This document shows, piece after piece, positions 53,867 to 60,754 of a stretch of DNA of 64,000 nucleotides. This DNA comes from an uncultured virus (IMG/VR IMGVR_UViG_3300027212_000008). Its lineage: Duplodnaviria > Heunggongvirae > Uroviricota > Caudoviricetes > Crassvirales. Made by a program: the position numbers and the translations under genes. The DNA lies in IMG/VR virus record IMGVR_UViG_3300027212_000008; one strand, written 5' to 3'. The notes under the pieces are model-generated. The model was not told the DNA's origin. It saw only the letters and a program-made list of their open reading frames with translations, and made no database searches. Within the stretch, counting starts at the first letter, position 1; every line of letters begins with the position of its first letter.

Positions 53867-53955
53867 AGCTATAGCCCTATAGGAGAAATCATAAAAAATA
53901 TATGGGCTATTTATAAAAATTATTTTAATATTGTAACTAATTAACGACAGCAAAT

Positions 53956-55125
53956 ATGAGTGAAGAGATTAACGACCTATTTGAAGGACTTCAAATAATG
54001 TCAGCAGCAGAATTAAATTCAGCCGTGGAATCTAAAAATGAAGACGGAGAATCTTCAAAGGAAGATGGGGAAGAATTTACTTTAACTCCAGTAGTAGCAG
54101 AAAAAGGAGATGACGATACTACTAGAGAAAATAAAACAGTAACAGCGAGAGCTGAAACTAATTCTAATTCTAGCGAGAATAAGAATGAAGTAGTTTACAA
54201 AGCCTTGATGAAGGAGCTAGTTAACTCAGGAGTTTTAACCGTTGAAGAAATGGAAAAACTAGATGAGATGCCAGGAACCTTTGATTCAATTAAAGAGTTG
54301 GTAAACAAAACAGTTGAAACAAATTTTAAAGCTAAAGAGAATAGCTGGAAAAGTAACATGTCTTCTGCAAAGAAAAGATTTTTAGAAATCGAAGATGCAT
54401 TTGACGAGACTGACCAAGCAATCTTAATGGCACAGAGATTAGAGTTCTTTGATACAGTAAGTATAGACGCAGTTAAAGCTGACGTAGGTTTGCAAAAGCA
54501 AATTTACTACGAGCAGTTGAAAGCTAAGAATTTCTCAGATGCAGATGCACTAGAAGCAATTGAAGATGCAGAGGCTATTAATAAATTAGAGGAAAAGTCT
54601 TTAAAGGCAATCCCTGAGTTAAAAGCAATGTCTCAACATGTAGTTAATCAGTCTAGAGATAACAAAGAGTTAAAAACTAAGGCAGAACAAAAAGCTCAGA
54701 TGGATGCTTTTGAAAATCTACTAGGACATATAGATTCTAGAGAAGGTTTTATAGATGGTTTAAATCTTAATAAAGTCTCTAAAGATAAGTTAAAAAGCAA
54801 CATAGTAAACCCTGTTTACACGGACCCTAAATCAGGAAAAGAGTTTAACAGTTTAATGTATAAGCAACAAAGAAACCCAGTAGAGTTTGAAATGTTGATT
54901 AACTACTATGACACATTAGGCTTATTTAACCTAGACAAAGAAGGAAAGTTTAAACCTGATATTACTAAGTTAAAGAACGTAGCAAAAACAGCAGCTATCA
55001 ATGAACTAGATAAAGTCATTGCAGCTGAAGAACAAAGAGGAGTAGGTCGTAACACATCTATGGAAACCTCACAAAAAACAGAAGGTATACTTAGTCTCCT
55101 CGAAAGAGCGACTGGTGGAAAATAA
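53956..55125 (+). CDS. Scaffolding-like protein
   Basis: Acidic helical protein between portal and MCP. Confidence 0.7.
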   Translation: MSEEINDLFEGLQIMSAAELNSAVESKNEDGESSKEDGEEFTLTPVVAEKGDDDTTRENKTVTARAETNSNSSENKNEVVYKALMKELVNSGVLTVEEMEKLDEMPGTFDSIKELVNKTVETNFKAKENSWKSNMSSAKKRFLEIEDAFDETDQAILMAQRLEFFDTVSIDAVKADVGLQKQIYYEQLKAKNFSDADALEAIEDAEAINKLEEKSLKAIPELKAMSQHVVNQSRDNKELKTKAEQKAQMDAFENLLGHIDSREGFIDGLNLNKVSKDKLKSNIVNPVYTDPKSGKEFNSLMYKQQRNPVEFEMLINYYDTLGLFNLDKEGKFKPDITKLKNVAKTAAINELDKVIAAEEQRGVGRNTSMETSQKTEGILSLLERATGGK

Positions 55126-55166
55126 AATAAATTTATTCGTTTAACAATTAATAACAAAAAACAAAA

Positions 55167-56678
55167 ATGGCTCAATTACTCCCATTACAACGGTATGAAG
55201 CTAAAGATTACAATGGTTTGGTTACTGATAACCACTTCCATTCTTTGTATCAACAAAAACCTCAGTTGATTAGTAATGTAATTAAACAAATTTACAAGAC
55301 TAACCTACAAGGTAAATTACGTGAATTCGTAGATCGTTTCCCTGTAAAAGAAGTGGAACAAGAAAACGGATTTTATAACTGGATGTTGCAAGGTCAACAC
55401 GATAAAAATCTTCCTCTAGTAGATGCTGAAACTATTGACGGACGTACTATTTCTGCAGGGACTTTCCCAGCAAACATTGGTGCTAACGGAGAACGTTTCT
55501 ACTTAATCTTTGACGAACCGTTGTTTGAAGAAACTAACGTACTTCGTGGAGAAGTTGATGATTATCACTTGTTGGTTAAGAAAGCGATGGACGCAGGTTC
55601 TCGTTACAAAGTTGAAGTTGAATTAGTAACTGATAACTCTACTAAGTCTGTTCCTTCTGAGGAATTGTCTATCGGAGGACGTTGGTCTAAATTCTATTCT
55701 CTTTCTCCTTCTACATTATCTTACCAAGGTGCTAAACCTTATTTCACTTCTCCTTGGAGAATGGAAAATCGTCCTTCTACATTACGTATGGAGTATGAGG
55801 TTGCAGGTAACACAATCAACAAAGGTAAAAACGAACCATTAGAGTTTGGATTTAACTACAAAGGACAACAAGAATCAATTTGGATTAACTACCAAGATAT
55901 GGTAGCTCATCACCAATGTGAAGAAATGTTTGCTCGTATGTTGATGTACGGTAAGAAAAACTGGACAGCTGACCACAAGTATTTGAACAAAGATGACAAG
56001 ACTAAATATGCTATCGAATCAGGTGCAGGTTTCTTTGAGCAAATTGCTCCATCTAACGTTCACTACTATAACTCTTATGACCTTGATTGGCATTTAGAAT
56101 TATTGTTAGACATGGGTGTTGGTAAAATTGAAAGAGGTAAGCGTGTAATTCACTTGTTAACAGGAGAATTCGGTGCTATTGAAATCTCTAAGCAAATCCA
56201 AGCTAAATCAGGAACAGGTAAATTTACTGTAATCTCTGATAAGTTCTTAATGAGTAACACAGACCCAGGAAACTTAGGTGGTAAAAACACTAAAGGTTTA
56301 ATGGAGCCGCAGTGGAACGTGTACGAATGGTACAATGGAGTTGTTATTATGGTTGAGATCGTTGATTTCTTCGATGATGATGTTTACTTCCCTCAACGTC
56401 ACCCAGATGGAAAAGGTCTTGTAGAATCTCACAGAATCTTAGCTCTTGATTATGGCGACAATGCAGGTATCTACCGTGTTAAGCCAAAAGGAGTTCCAGA
56501 TTACAATTGGGCATATATCCCAGGTATGAGAGACCCGTTCTCTCCTGCAGGTAAAGGTTCACCTAAAATGGTAGCTTCTCCAGTAGACGGATACTCAGTA
56601 CACTTCCAGAAGTGGGGTGGATTGATGATTGAAGATCCTACTAAAGTAGTAGATTTACGTCTTTCAGTAGAGAGATAA
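55167..56678 (+). CDS. Major capsid protein (crAss type)
   Basis: 503 aa; synteny; GAGFFEQI and TGEFG motifs; terminator downstream. Confidence 0.9.
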   Translation: MAQLLPLQRYEAKDYNGLVTDNHFHSLYQQKPQLISNVIKQIYKTNLQGKLREFVDRFPVKEVEQENGFYNWMLQGQHDKNLPLVDAETIDGRTISAGTFPANIGANGERFYLIFDEPLFEETNVLRGEVDDYHLLVKKAMDAGSRYKVEVELVTDNSTKSVPSEELSIGGRWSKFYSLSPSTLSYQGAKPYFTSPWRMENRPSTLRMEYEVAGNTINKGKNEPLEFGFNYKGQQESIWINYQDMVAHHQCEEMFARMLMYGKKNWTADHKYLNKDDKTKYAIESGAGFFEQIAPSNVHYYNSYDLDWHLELLLDMGVGKIERGKRVIHLLTGEFGAIEISKQIQAKSGTGKFTVISDKFLMSNTDPGNLGGKNTKGLMEPQWNVYEWYNGVVIMVEIVDFFDDDVYFPQRHPDGKGLVESHRILALDYGDNAGIYRVKPKGVPDYNWAYIPGMRDPFSPAGKGSPKMVASPVDGYSVHFQKWGGLMIEDPTKVVDLRLSVER

Positions 56679-56696
56679 TAAATATAAAAAATGTAT

Positions 56697-56731
56697 CCCC
56701 TTGGAGCTAATCACTCCGAGGGGGCATTTTT
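56697..56731 (+). terminator. Intrinsic terminator after the MCP gene
   Basis: ccccttggag/ctccgagggg stem followed by a T-run. Confidence 0.75.
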
Positions 56732-56763
56732 AATAAGAGAATTAATAATTGACAGCAAAATAA

Positions 56764-57702
56764 ATGGAAACAACGACAGCAGAAAAAGTGGTTTACGGTA
56801 CATTTCTACAAGATAGAATTGTTGCAGTAAAACCAGTAGAATCATCAGGGAAATGGAGTACCCTATTAGTATCTGGACAGGACAATAAAAAAGACCCGTT
56901 CATTTATAACAAAGCAAAACGAAGCTACCAATTGCCTCTTAACAATGCAAACTTAGGTGGAGGAGTTAAAGTAATTTTAGACGATCAAAAGAGAGTTAAA
57001 ATTCAAAAATACATGGAGTCTTTTCCTAACGGAATGACCCAAAAAGAGTTCTTTGAAAAAGAATTAGGAGTAAACTTAAACCCTACTCTTAAGGCTGAAG
57101 AAAACTTCTGGAGAACAGACAGAAGAGGTAGAGTAGTAATGACTAAAGAAGGTACTACACTAAATCTTAATCTTTCCCTAGACATGCTTAAGTATCTTAT
57201 ACTTATAGCTAATAAGTCACTAGTATCTCCTTCGTATGAAGATAGAACATTGAAAGCGACTTATGAGTTTATGATTGTAGACGAAAGCAAAGTAACTACT
57301 AAGAAATTAGCAGAGGCAAGTGTTAAGGCAGATGCGTTTATTAAGTATGCAGAAATTACAAATAGTAAGAAAGCTACTATTGGATTTATTAAATCCCTAG
57401 GTAGAACTATTCCTGCGACCGCAAGTGAAGAGTGGATAAAAAATGAAGTCTTAAATATTGCAGATAGTAATCCTGCATATTTCTTAGAAATTGTTAATCA
57501 TCCTCAATATAATGAGCGTATCTTTGTACAAGAAGCTGTAGAAGCTGGTGCAATTATCCGTAAAGGAGAGAAAAGATATACTTTAGATAACGGGTCTGAG
57601 TTAGGAGATATGACAGATGTTATTAACTACTTACTTAACCCTGATAATCAGGAAGTAAAACTTAGAATTAAAGCAAAAATTGATTTAGCAAAACGTAACT
57701 AA
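56764..57702 (+). CDS. Conserved crAss capsid-module protein following MCP
   Basis: 312 aa; synteny; FW...LNL motif. Confidence 0.7.
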   Translation: METTTAEKVVYGTFLQDRIVAVKPVESSGKWSTLLVSGQDNKKDPFIYNKAKRSYQLPLNNANLGGGVKVILDDQKRVKIQKYMESFPNGMTQKEFFEKELGVNLNPTLKAEENFWRTDRRGRVVMTKEGTTLNLNLSLDMLKYLILIANKSLVSPSYEDRTLKATYEFMIVDESKVTTKKLAEASVKADAFIKYAEITNSKKATIGFIKSLGRTIPATASEEWIKNEVLNIADSNPAYFLEIVNHPQYNERIFVQEAVEAGAIIRKGEKRYTLDNGSELGDMTDVINYLLNPDNQEVKLRIKAKIDLAKRN

Positions 57703-57704
57703 TT

Positions 57705-58472
57705 ATGACTGCAAACGAAATGGCTGATGCATTAGAATTAAAACTAGACAGAAGTGATAGTTTTGGTTCCCCTGGATATGAAGATTTTGAATTATCTTCT
57801 GTTCTAAGTGAAGCTAATAGTTTATATGTTAAGAAGTACTTTGATGAATTAAACAACAGAAAAGGTAAAGGCTTCCAAGAAACAGAAATTAGAGACCAAG
57901 GTTTGGGAGCGTTAATACTAGACGCTCCCTCCCTCGTTTCTTCAGCTTCACAAGTTGGTGTAATAGTCAACCCTAATGTAGTTGGAAAGTTCTTTGACTT
58001 ACCGTTGAACCATATGTATACTATCTATGAAGAATGTACAATAGATAAAATAGAATGTGGAACAGCAGAAACTAGTATAGTTGCTTATGTAACTCCAATA
58101 GCTCATACAGAAATGCAGAGATTTAATTGGAGTAAGTATAAGAAACCTTTCTATAATATTTCAGGAGACTCAAGAGTTTGGAGATCTGAATTTTCTAGAC
58201 AAGTAACTGGAATTAATCCCGCATCACCTGCAACTGCAAAGAGGCATGAGATGTTTACAGACGGTACTTTTAACATTACAGCCTATCACATGCGCTATGT
58301 TAAAAACCCTGAGAATATAGTAGTAGATAGAAATACTCCTACTAACCAACGTAACTGTGAACTAGATACTTCTACTCACATAGTTATAGTAGACATAGCA
58401 ATGAGCTTAATGTCTGATAGAATAAGAGAACAAAGAGTACAAAATATTGAGCAATTTAAAGAGCTCGAATAA
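57705..58472 (+). CDS. Putative head-tail connector/ring protein
   Basis: YHMRYVKNP...CEL...H..IVDIA pattern; synteny. Confidence 0.7.
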   Translation: MTANEMADALELKLDRSDSFGSPGYEDFELSSVLSEANSLYVKKYFDELNNRKGKGFQETEIRDQGLGALILDAPSLVSSASQVGVIVNPNVVGKFFDLPLNHMYTIYEECTIDKIECGTAETSIVAYVTPIAHTEMQRFNWSKYKKPFYNISGDSRVWRSEFSRQVTGINPASPATAKRHEMFTDGTFNITAYHMRYVKNPENIVVDRNTPTNQRNCELDTSTHIVIVDIAMSLMSDRIREQRVQNIEQFKELE

Positions 58473-58509
58473 ATAATAATATAACAATAACAATTTAAAA
58501 TTAAAAAAA

Positions 58510-59823
58510 ATGTTAAGAAAAGCAAACAATGTATTTAGCGTATTGCTAAATGACGCTTCTAAATTAACTTCAGCGTTACCAGCAACAACTGCAGGTGTAG
58601 TTGTAACTGATGCAAATCTTGAATCAGGAGCAATCGTTGTAACAGATTTAGGATTGCAGAGATTAAGTGCTGCTGAATACACAGCATTAGCTAACAGTGA
58701 CCAATTTCTTGTAGTACAAGGAAAAGGTGTTGGAAAACCTCTTATGAAGTCTCCAGTTTTAACTAAAGGTAAGATTAAGTTAACTGCAGCTCGTTTTAAA
58801 GCAGCTGTTCAACAAGTAACTACAATTGGTTATAACGGAACTACAGGAGTACTTCCTACAGCAAACAATACTTCTTATTTTATTAAAATTAGAAAAAGAG
58901 ATAATGATGCTGCTAACCGTTCTCAACCAATGAGTTTATTTGCAGGTCCAGTTAAGACTGACGCTACAGGTACTCAAGAAGAATTGGCTTTCTTGTTGGC
59001 AGTTAATGGTTTAAAGAACTTTAAAGATGAGCCTGCAAATGGTTACTTGAAATTTGAAGTAATTTCTAACGGAACTCTTGCAGCTATTGGTGCAACTACT
59101 TTAGCAGCTACTGTAGGTTCTAGATTAGTAACTTATTCTGCAGCACACTCTTTAGTAGTAGGTGATTTAATATTTATTGCTGGAGCAACTTATAAAGTAG
59201 CAGTAGTTCCTTCTGCAACTACAATAACTTTAAACTTTGCATTCCAAGGTACAACTGTAACAGCTTTAGCAACAGGTACTACTTACGCAACTACTCACGG
59301 TTTATTAACTGTGCCTACTGCTTTTGGTATCCGTCTTACAGGTAAACCAGCACCGTTTGATGTAAATCAATTCCGTGATTATTATGCTAATCGTTTTACT
59401 GCAACTTTCTCTGATAGTTCAACTTTGAATACAGCAACTACAGGAGCTCGTAACGGTAACGGTGTATGGCAACAAGTTGCTATGGATGAGTACATGAACT
59501 ATGGTTTTGAAGGTCAAAACAATCAGTTAGCTACTCCTTCTGTTCCTCGTGACCAAGTAGTTAAAATCCCTGGTGTAGGAACTGCAACAGCTTTAACTTC
59601 TAAGTATTGCGCTTTAAACATTGCTTGGGAAGAGTCAATTGGTACTCTAGTAACTATGGCAGGTGGAAAAGGTAACGTAGTAGTTTATGTTAATCTTACA
59701 GATAGTGCAGGTTTAGGAAAAATTTCTACTCCAACAACTACTACAGGAAATGAGTTTATCACAGTATTTGGAGGTCCTACTGCTTTTGGCGTAGCTGCAC
59801 TTACAGACTTGGATGAGCAATAA
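58510..59823 (+). CDS. Abundant virion structural protein (auxiliary capsid-like)
   Basis: Ala/Thr/Gly-rich, 437 aa, inserted small beta domain (HSLVVGD), followed by a strong hairpin. Confidence 0.65.
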   Translation: MLRKANNVFSVLLNDASKLTSALPATTAGVVVTDANLESGAIVVTDLGLQRLSAAEYTALANSDQFLVVQGKGVGKPLMKSPVLTKGKIKLTAARFKAAVQQVTTIGYNGTTGVLPTANNTSYFIKIRKRDNDAANRSQPMSLFAGPVKTDATGTQEELAFLLAVNGLKNFKDEPANGYLKFEVISNGTLAAIGATTLAATVGSRLVTYSAAHSLVVGDLIFIAGATYKVAVVPSATTITLNFAFQGTTVTALATGTTYATTHGLLTVPTAFGIRLTGKPAPFDVNQFRDYYANRFTATFSDSSTLNTATTGARNGNGVWQQVAMDEYMNYGFEGQNNQLATPSVPRDQVVKIPGVGTATALTSKYCALNIAWEESIGTLVTMAGGKGNVVVYVNLTDSAGLGKISTPTTTTGNEFITVFGGPTAFGVAALTDLDEQ

Positions 59824-59843
59824 AATGTAATTCTCCAACCCTC

Positions 59844-59900
59844 AGTAGCCCGTCACGAAATTTTGCTGTCGAGTGATGGGCTACTATATTTATTTTTATT
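59844..59900 (+). terminator. Terminator-like hairpin with a 16-nt loop
   Basis: 13-bp stem agtagcccgtcac/gtgatgggctact followed by a T-rich tract. Confidence 0.75.
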
Positions 59901-59923
59901 ACCTTTACTAAAATTTCAATCCT

Positions 59924-60754
59924 ATGAGTTTACTTCCTCAAATATCTTTATCATTAGGAAACAAATGTAACACTGTAACCATTGAAGAGTTAACAGGTTT
60001 ATTTGTAACTGATACCAACATAGGAGGTTGGGGAGGCCCTAATATTGATACTAGTGTTATAACTTATGCAGCAGTTAATGTATTTCCTTACACAGGAAGT
60101 GTTATTTCAGCATCGGGCACAGGAGAAATCACAGGAACTCTATTTACAGACACTACTCATATTTCAGGATTATTTCAAATAGGACAACAACTTATTGGTA
60201 CGGGAGTTCTACCTGGAACTACTATCATAGCAGTTATTACAGGCACAGGAAATAACAACGGAGGAACTTATATTGTAAACTACTCTCAAACAGTATTACC
60301 AACTACTATCGCAGGTATACCTGTATTAGCTTCTTATCCATTATTTGATGGTACAGTTGACGTATTCTCAGGATTACCTTCTGCACCAACTCCATCACCT
60401 TTTATAGCACTTCAAGACCAACCTTGGTCTAACGTTGACGGAATTTATGAAATTGTTTATACAGTCACAGACGGTGTAGATGTTTATACTAATGAAACTC
60501 AACATGAATTGTTCATTTGTAATTTATGTAATTGCAAAGATAGTTTAGTAATTAAACTTATTGATGCTTGTTCTACTATCGCTGTTAAAGCTTTAAAAGA
60601 ACAAGTTGATCAAATGGAAGTATTTATTTACGGAATCCAATCAGCATTCAGCTGTGGGGATTTTGATACTGCTGAGAATATTATCACAGCAGCAACTAAT
60701 TATTGTACAACAATATCTAACTGCAGCGGTTGTGGCTGTGGAGGAAATTGCTAA
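59924..60754 (+). CDS. Virion structural protein with a Cys-rich C-terminus
   Basis: DGIYEIVY motif; Gly/Thr-rich inserted beta segment; CSGCGCGGNC end. Confidence 0.65.
   Translation: MSLLPQISLSLGNKCNTVTIEELTGLFVTDTNIGGWGGPNIDTSVITYAAVNVFPYTGSVISASGTGEITGTLFTDTTHISGLFQIGQQLIGTGVLPGTTIIAVITGTGNNNGGTYIVNYSQTVLPTTIAGIPVLASYPLFDGTVDVFSGLPSAPTPSPFIALQDQPWSNVDGIYEIVYTVTDGVDVYTNETQHELFICNLCNCKDSLVIKLIDACSTIAVKALKEQVDQMEVFIYGIQSAFSCGDFDTAENIITAATNYCTTISNCSGCGCGGNC

Follow-up and report, generated by a model that had tools for sequence, protein, structure and literature searches.

A terminal hairpin complementary to two translation starts in the capsid operon of a crAss-like phage

The c4 RNA of phages P1 and P7 and the messages on which it acts are transcribed from one and the same strand. 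Two short single-stranded boxes of this phage RNA pair around a ribosome-binding site, and translation is thereby blocked (PMC5320573, PMC12197685). The subject here is an element in a stretch of 64,000 nucleotides from the uncultured crAss-like virus IMGVR_UViG_3300027212_000008 (Crassvirales), hereafter the window, which likewise has two single-stranded boxes complementary to sequence near start codons, namely the seed in a hairpin loop and a pyrimidine box termed box A. Whereas c4, which is made of three stem-loops and excised by RNase P, governs immunity and lysogeny in an immunity/antirepressor context, the window element is one terminator-like hairpin at the 3' end of an operon, its targets are morphogenesis genes, and its context is a capsid module of terminase, portal, scaffold, major capsid protein (MCP), gp33, ring and auxiliary genes. 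At the gathering threshold, Rfam yielded no family in the window, nor in the relatives L220 and L370; below threshold, only other families were matched at 59780-59950, the best being ctRNA_pT181 (29 of 56 bits).

In Staphylococcus aureus, a pyrimidine-rich motif in icaR's 3' untranslated region (3'UTR) pairs with the translation-start region of its own message and blocks initiation (PMC3868564). The window element sets a 3' pyrimidine sequence against start regions of what may be the same transcription unit; yet icaR concerns one gene, a Shine-Dalgarno (SD) target and a duplex cut by RNase III, while the window has two targets, 3.1 and 5.9 kb upstream in what would be a polycistronic message, the seed sits in a hairpin loop, and the main seed targets are dedicated tags and not SD sequences (GACAGC, UGGCAGA, AGAGC), only the target of box A being purine-rich. 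Bacterial small RNAs derived from 3'UTRs share the terminator of their mRNA and expose a short seed. CisR is an example of this class (PMC13250501). These RNAs and the window have in common a conserved seed that is single-stranded and can pair with the start regions of targets; the known cases differ in being mostly host-encoded, chaperone-dependent and trans-acting, and the window seed is placed in a terminal loop. In phage P22, the scaffold protein is itself a post-transcriptional autoregulator, so that scaffold is tuned against coat within one late operon; the likeness ends there, for the evidence in the window points to RNA-RNA pairing and includes a second gene.

The element resembles c4 and the icaR 3'UTR, and belongs to neither. 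No description of it was found in the literature, although supplements and catalogues of structured RNAs, which lay outside the search, could list this hairpin or its counterpart within the Steigviridae scaffold gene; the consulted part of a review on phage base-pairing RNAs has no mention of capsid or Bacteroides (PMC12197685).

The terminal hairpin and its two targets

The element has a conserved structure on a definite strand, is complementary to two specific start regions and covaries with them. Its parts in the window are as follows.

59844..59885, + strand: terminal hairpin with a 13-bp stem and a 16-nt open loop (59857-59872); seed GCTGTC at 59865-59870
59860-59871, + strand: antisense stretch ATTTTGCTGTCG within that loop
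59886..59897, + strand: U-rich tail like that of an intrinsic terminator, interrupted in the window and a clean run in many relatives
53945..53954, + strand: target tag 1, CGACAGCAAA, in the leader of the putative scaffold gene (ATG at 53956)
56751..56761, + strand: target tag 2, GACAGCAAAAT, in the leader of the gp33-like gene (ATG at 56764)
56774..56784, + strand: second seed site, CGACAGCAGAA, in the first codons of the gp33-like gene; predicted duplex -16.2 kcal/mol
59828..59836, + strand: box A, TAATTCTCC, a pyrimidine stretch that stays single-stranded 5' of the hairpin; opening cost 0.2 kcal/mol
56737..56744, + strand: box A target, purine box GAGAATTA in the gp33-like leader, complementary to 59828-59835

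An original prediction, made from the sequence of the window, had proposed that the loop is antisense to the leaders of the two genes flanking MCP. The positions it gave for both leader motifs and for the loop complement were all correct on recheck; the seed site at the gp33-like coding start (56774-56784) and box A (59828-59835) are additions to it. The exact 9-mer GACAGCAAA is present in three copies in the 64 kb, namely in the two leaders and, reversed, in the hairpin loop. With one mismatch allowed, 18 copies are observed in the window and 14.9 expected, that is, at chance level, so the signal lies in position and not in abundance. The whole 71.75-kb record has 83 open reading frame (ORF) starts, and of these the two named in the prediction rank top as partners of the loop, gp33-like at -17.0 and scaffold at -15.8 kcal/mol, followed by the next at -13.8; opening the loop or the target is computed to cost less than 1 kcal/mol each.

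The hairpin folds at -22.8 kcal/mol (z -5.2), and the 3' end of the operon has a GC stem followed by the U-rich tail on the + strand. Compensatory changes occur at 9 of the 13 stem pairs and 99.4% of cells are paired in 38 distinct sequences, the structure having come from the same alignment on which it was scored. The + strand fold is the more stable in 30/38 hairpins, and G-U pairs are found in 31/38; in relatives, the loop seed has a mean unpaired probability of 0.80 while the length of the loop varies.

Relatives were taken from 220 loci with MCP, reduced to 120 non-redundant ones, 103 of which have an MCP identity of at least 79% and make up the main clade; denominators vary between genes because contigs end. 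Between -25 and +30 of the start codon, GACAGC is found near the scaffold start of 75/77 relatives and the gp33-like start of 96/101, and at none of 341 other starts (MCP 0/102, ring 0/97, auxiliary 0/79, next gene 0/63). The absence of the motif from the MCP leader, noted in the prediction for the window, thereby holds in all 102 relatives, and the concern that the motif might be no more frequent at start codons than expected by chance falls away. The seed GCTGTC is present in 66/66 3' regions. Three of the five gp33-like exceptions have GGCAGC, still able to pair via G-U wobble. The position of the tag drifts, from -12 to +2 at scaffold and from -20 to +20 at gp33-like starts, a second copy being frequent in the first gp33-like codons of relatives, and the seed is retained amid leader and loop sequence that is free to diverge. 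The loop-leader match is real and not due to chance.

A second complementarity, that of box A to the gp33-like leader, extends over at least 7 nt in 50 of 55 distinct pairs, and about ten matched variants are known, such as TTGGGAGA in L164, TTGAGGA in L087 and GAGAGAAAGA in L120. In 23 lineage representatives, a choice which reduces relatedness and does not remove it, cognate boxes and leaders are complementary over 7.35 nt vs 5.40 nt in non-cognate combinations (0/20,000 permutations).

At 52-65% MCP identity the seed itself differs, on both sides: GGCAGAC in L290, ATGGCAGAA in L370 and (C)GATGGCA(GA) in L288 and L397 stand at the available target starts and are mirrored in the loop of the hairpin that follows the auxiliary gene. 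Among the distant lineages one seed is UGGCAGA, which covers the AUG; in L288, L397 and L370 the complement does so. A further clade (L204, L206, L210) has AGAGC at the scaffold start and the complement placed between two hairpins; its match at the gp33-like gene, which the antisense targets beyond an inserted ORF, is A/T-rich and of low score in a swap matrix of 12 lineages. That matrix shows blocks at the scaffold and gp33-like starts, which are missing at the MCP and auxiliary starts. The covariation on which the original prediction had staked its antisense interpretation is hence present, stem, box A and seed changing jointly with the leaders, and the interpretation is supported at the level of sequence. 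The ORF inserted after MCP in the AGAGC clade is rich in Lys, Gly and Met and 77-157 aa long.

A FastTree phylogeny of 60 rows gathers the element-bearing lineages in a single clade (support 1.0), whose sister group consists of element-less lineages; at 44-52% identity, loci are tag-free and their hairpin is plain and long. A Bacteroidetes promoter-like box precedes the gp33-like gene in 30/32 element-less loci vs 0/121 in the main clade and 0/8 at 52-65% identity, two of these eight being uninspected for the element and the AGAGC clade being excluded, as its small ORF intervenes. Such a contrast fits a role of the element in tuning genes that share a transcript. A different trace is left at the ring protein, which starts with Met-Thr-Ala and where Thr as ACA would create the seed. 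ACA makes up 41% of Thr codons; it is used at this position in 0/97 classifiable main-clade loci (16 unclassified), in 8/8 AGAGC loci and in 9/11 classifiable element-less loci. Seed-bearing lineages avoid the seed at the ring start, and other lineages use ACA.

The capsid operon and the proposed mode of action

The module is ordered as terminase, portal, a 389-aa gene, MCP, a 312-aa gene, the ring protein gene and a 437-aa gene, and comprises the following features.

53926..53933, + strand: promoter-like box of the Bacteroidetes -7 type, TAATATTG, upstream of the scaffold gene
53956..55125, + strand: putative scaffold gene, 389 aa, homologue of crAss001 gp31 (hidden Markov model (HMM) of aquatic homologues against gp31, E 3e-24)
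55167..56678, + strand: MCP gene (PF23898, E 1.7e-84), with an A/T-only, tag-free leader
56691..56731, + strand: terminator-like hairpin after MCP, with no promoter-like box following
56764..57702, + strand: gp33-like gene, 312 aa, homologue of crAss001 gp33 (HMM, E 2e-42)
57705..58472, + strand: tail ring protein gene (PF25710, E 1e-18), beginning 2 nt past the gp33-like stop
58510..59823, + strand: auxiliary capsid protein gene, 437 aa, with the fold of crAss001 gp36 (model pLDDT 90; Foldseek 7qof chain a)

Late genes of crAss-like phages are thought to be transcribed by the host polymerase (PMC10136315), and the Bacteroidetes -7 consensus is TANNTTTG, with a spacing of 4-5 nt (PMC6847099). 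The promoter-like box of the scaffold gene is matched in 92/105 main-clade loci; in the window it would put the transcript start near 53938 and give a leader of 17-18 nt. Across the main clade, the box TAATATTG differs from the host consensus TANNTTTG and is possibly a late-promoter variant. That no promoter-like box lies between MCP and the gp33-like gene in 121 loci suggests that both are on one transcript, and for the same reason the hairpin after MCP would need read-through. In relatives this hairpin frequently has a conserved apical motif, GAG(T/G)TGA(A/T)(A/C)GCC, a candidate protein site or signal for read-through; the window loop differs. The ring gene is presumably coupled translationally to the gp33-like gene. 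Beyond the terminal hairpin, a promoter-like box at 59900-59907 (TATCTTTG in many relatives, by eye) suggests that the next gene opens a new transcription unit. Assembled contigs from 4 of 10 RNA runs cover the scaffold, MCP, gp33-like, ring and auxiliary genes, and none covers 59675-59941; they are uninformative on ends, strand and level.

The pairing of loop and box with the leaders is very probably functional, and the element is probably a same-strand, two-box antisense RNA and a repressor of scaffold and gp33-like translation. The host polymerase would start at the scaffold promoter box (53926), read through the hairpin after MCP and end at 59886-59897; the loop would then seed duplexes of 10-11 bp over the ribosome footprint at the two starts, with box A contributing a second helix of 7-11 bp on the gp33-like leader. 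Synthesis of the ring protein would drop along with that of the gp33-like protein via coupling, while MCP and auxiliary genes would stay unrepressed. The expected outcome is a high output of MCP and auxiliary protein and a low output of scaffold, gp33 and ring protein, so that the same message would supply shell proteins in excess over assembly factors and tail rings of 12-24 copies. The element may act inside the 5.9-kb mRNA (in cis) or as a released 3' fragment, and the feedback might strengthen as late RNA accumulates. Two findings favour repression: in three lineages the AUG lies under the complement, and pairing at the start region reduces initiation in Bacteroidetes/Flavobacterium (PMC6847099).

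Several observations weigh against this repression model. L100 retains the loop although neither of its starts has the exact tag, which is missing from the two starts of L164 as well. The core seed is invariant in the main clade, hence its covariation rests on about three lineages and few genomes, and the AGAGC clade amounts to 3 loci with a 3' region, in which the predicted fold has the element between the two hairpins partly base-paired. In essence, the promoter contrast reflects a single split in the phylogeny. On its own, box A is weak (-7.5 kcal/mol) and lacks genome-wide specificity, its target ranking outside the top 6 of 83 starts, for which reason it is likely a helper element, and 5/55 pairs have no leader partner for it. 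A strong hairpin after MCP would also cut auxiliary mRNA below MCP mRNA, which sits awkwardly with a 1:1 need.

Real pairing might instead stimulate or protect the two genes, through closure of the mRNA into a loop, shielding of the 5' end or reloading of ribosomes. About 8-13 nt separate the scaffold tag from the point where the transcript is predicted to start, the hairpin sits where it is predicted to end, and the host phylum lacks SD recruitment (PMC7797042); but a complement that reaches over the AUG (L288, L397, L370), sites that drift 20 nt to either side of the start and all remain within the ribosome footprint, and a ring start kept clear of seed matches make stimulation unlikely. Just as improbable is that the duplexes serve not ribosome access but RNA processing or termination, as cleavage sites or by affecting whether the post-MCP hairpin or the final one is read through: the tags follow the start codon, often within the first codons, one of them stands at a scaffold start that no terminator precedes, and the duplexes are short, even if the box A target lies 5 nt beyond the post-MCP hairpin and the element is confined to loci whose gp33-like gene relies on read-through.

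The original prediction had offered as its alternative a protein-binding site present in both orientations. GACAGC would then be a site on DNA or RNA, and the hairpin a reversed third copy, such as an RNA decoy made from the minus strand that captures a repressor of translation; the hexamer is indeed near-invariant in the main clade, and the minus strand folds too (mean -19.2 kcal/mol). This proposal is disfavoured, and less probable still than the two preceding ones, since G-U pairs and the U-tail mark the + strand, tag variants are tolerated via G-U, and box A in its ten or so matched variants and the seed in at least three change on both sides together. A chance match inherited by common descent is hardly credible: relatives are not independent and the one-mismatch 9-mer is at chance level in the window, yet the seed is kept while its surroundings diverge, seeds were replaced independently, and tag counts, box A covariation and swap matrix already contradict it.

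Regarding the genes themselves, the Crassvirus MCP (PF23898), the ring protein (PF25710) and the gp36-fold auxiliary protein are all present, as in a crAss-like phage; among 117 records, no cultured phage exceeds 32% MCP identity. The name scaffold for the 389-aa gene follows from its position. In ProJPt-Bp1, the gene before MCP (L228:4808-5962) is a match to the scaffold profile at E 4e-12; its label, that of an ADP-ribosylating toxin family protein, is probably wrong. For the gp33-like protein, a fold search gave no match reaching E 0.001; its model has many sub-threshold matches of 58 residues to RecA, which agree with the annotation of crAss001 gp33 as a dsDNA-binding-domain protein. PDB sequence searches returned no match for either the auxiliary or the gp33-like protein and the profile comparison of the 437-aa protein with gp36 was marginal (probability 1.1), so that its identity was settled by the fold search: on its modelled fold it is the auxiliary capsid protein, aligning over 333 aa (E 5e-10) with chain a of 7qof, that of crAss001. 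In the crAss001 virion, MCP and auxiliary protein have nine copies each per asymmetric unit and the rings are dodecameric; gp31 and gp33 are absent from the main text of that structure report (PMC10172136).

A stem-loop within the scaffold gene of Steigviridae

Thirteen Steigviridae-type records were compared, namely crAss001, DAC15, phi14:2, frurule and nine uncultured ones. Most of their gp31 and gp33 leaders have GGAGAA-like tags, and the inspected MCP leaders are A/T-rich. A phage-encoded bS21, which could make GGAG tags function as SD sequences, was not found in the record of the window, itself 54% complete. No 3' antisense loop was seen after the gp36-like gene in the 10 cultured or gut phage records inspected; the complement lies instead inside the scaffold coding sequence (nt 230-280), where Ser-Pro is written TCT-CC in 13/13 against a background of 44/78. 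In the phage phi14:2 the tag differs, being GGAACTGA, and is mirrored in turn within the scaffold coding sequence.

L220:6989-7114 (crAss001 gp31), L224:5014-5139, L226:3010-3135, L221:7019-7144 and nine more: in-gene stem-loop

The stem has 10 bp, with no broken pair in 13 sequences (phi14:2 omitted, IAS included) and compensatory change at 4 pairs; it encloses a pyrimidine loop of 30-36 nt complementary to the gp33 and gp31 start regions. Folding compared with synonymous shuffles gives z below -2.3 in 10/13. Synonymous conservation is maximal at codons 40-115 (0.72-0.90 vs a median of 0.53); as it reaches upstream to codon 40, the in-gene structure may be larger. In the scaffolds of the aquatic relatives, z-scores for a comparable in-gene stem are mixed, down to -3.0 in some windows.

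Covariation with the gp33 leader is significant (8.23 vs 7.31 nt, 6/20,000 permutations), and that with the scaffold leader is not in Steigviridae (1378/20,000). Both starts are within the top four of the 14-16 starts tested in each of 6 genomes, but a control start ties with or beats one or both target starts in 5/6. Whole-genome pattern counts of the complement are near control levels, and the lead therefore rests on position and structure. The in-gene structure is well supported by these comparisons, the antisense role of its loop less so, and protein constraint contributes. A gp27-like start (L220:4765, L224:2185, L229:3369) is among the top three loop partners in three genomes and may be a third target; the gene is annotated as lysis regulatory in L220 and L229 and has the same position in L224.

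Control of head assembly in crAss-like phages

The window element is real, conserved and covarying across a large set of aquatic, uncultured crAss-like phages, and is probably a new form of same-strand antisense control on virion assembly genes, in Bacteroidetes-type hosts. Phage-encoded base-pairing RNAs with known targets are mostly those of temperate phages of Proteobacteria.

A wider proposal is put forward tentatively, with slightly less than even confidence: crAss-like phages may share a head-assembly RNA circuit, in which an antisense loop silences the genes flanking MCP, built twice, as the 3' terminal hairpin of the aquatic lineages and as the stem-loop in the scaffold coding sequence of Steigviridae (crAss001, DAC15, phi14:2). 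The SD-like GGAGAA tags would then be antisense targets and not ribosome-binding sites, in hosts blind to SD sequences. With such a counterpart, the control would extend to phages in culture that belong to the human gut's most abundant virus order, and the idea would be testable; strand-specific RNA-seq has been published for one such cultured phage (PMC8375218).

The natural compensatory variants are ready-made test alleles. The element offers a concrete mechanism by which unequal amounts of protein may be obtained from one crAss-like late operon, in hosts without Shine-Dalgarno control.

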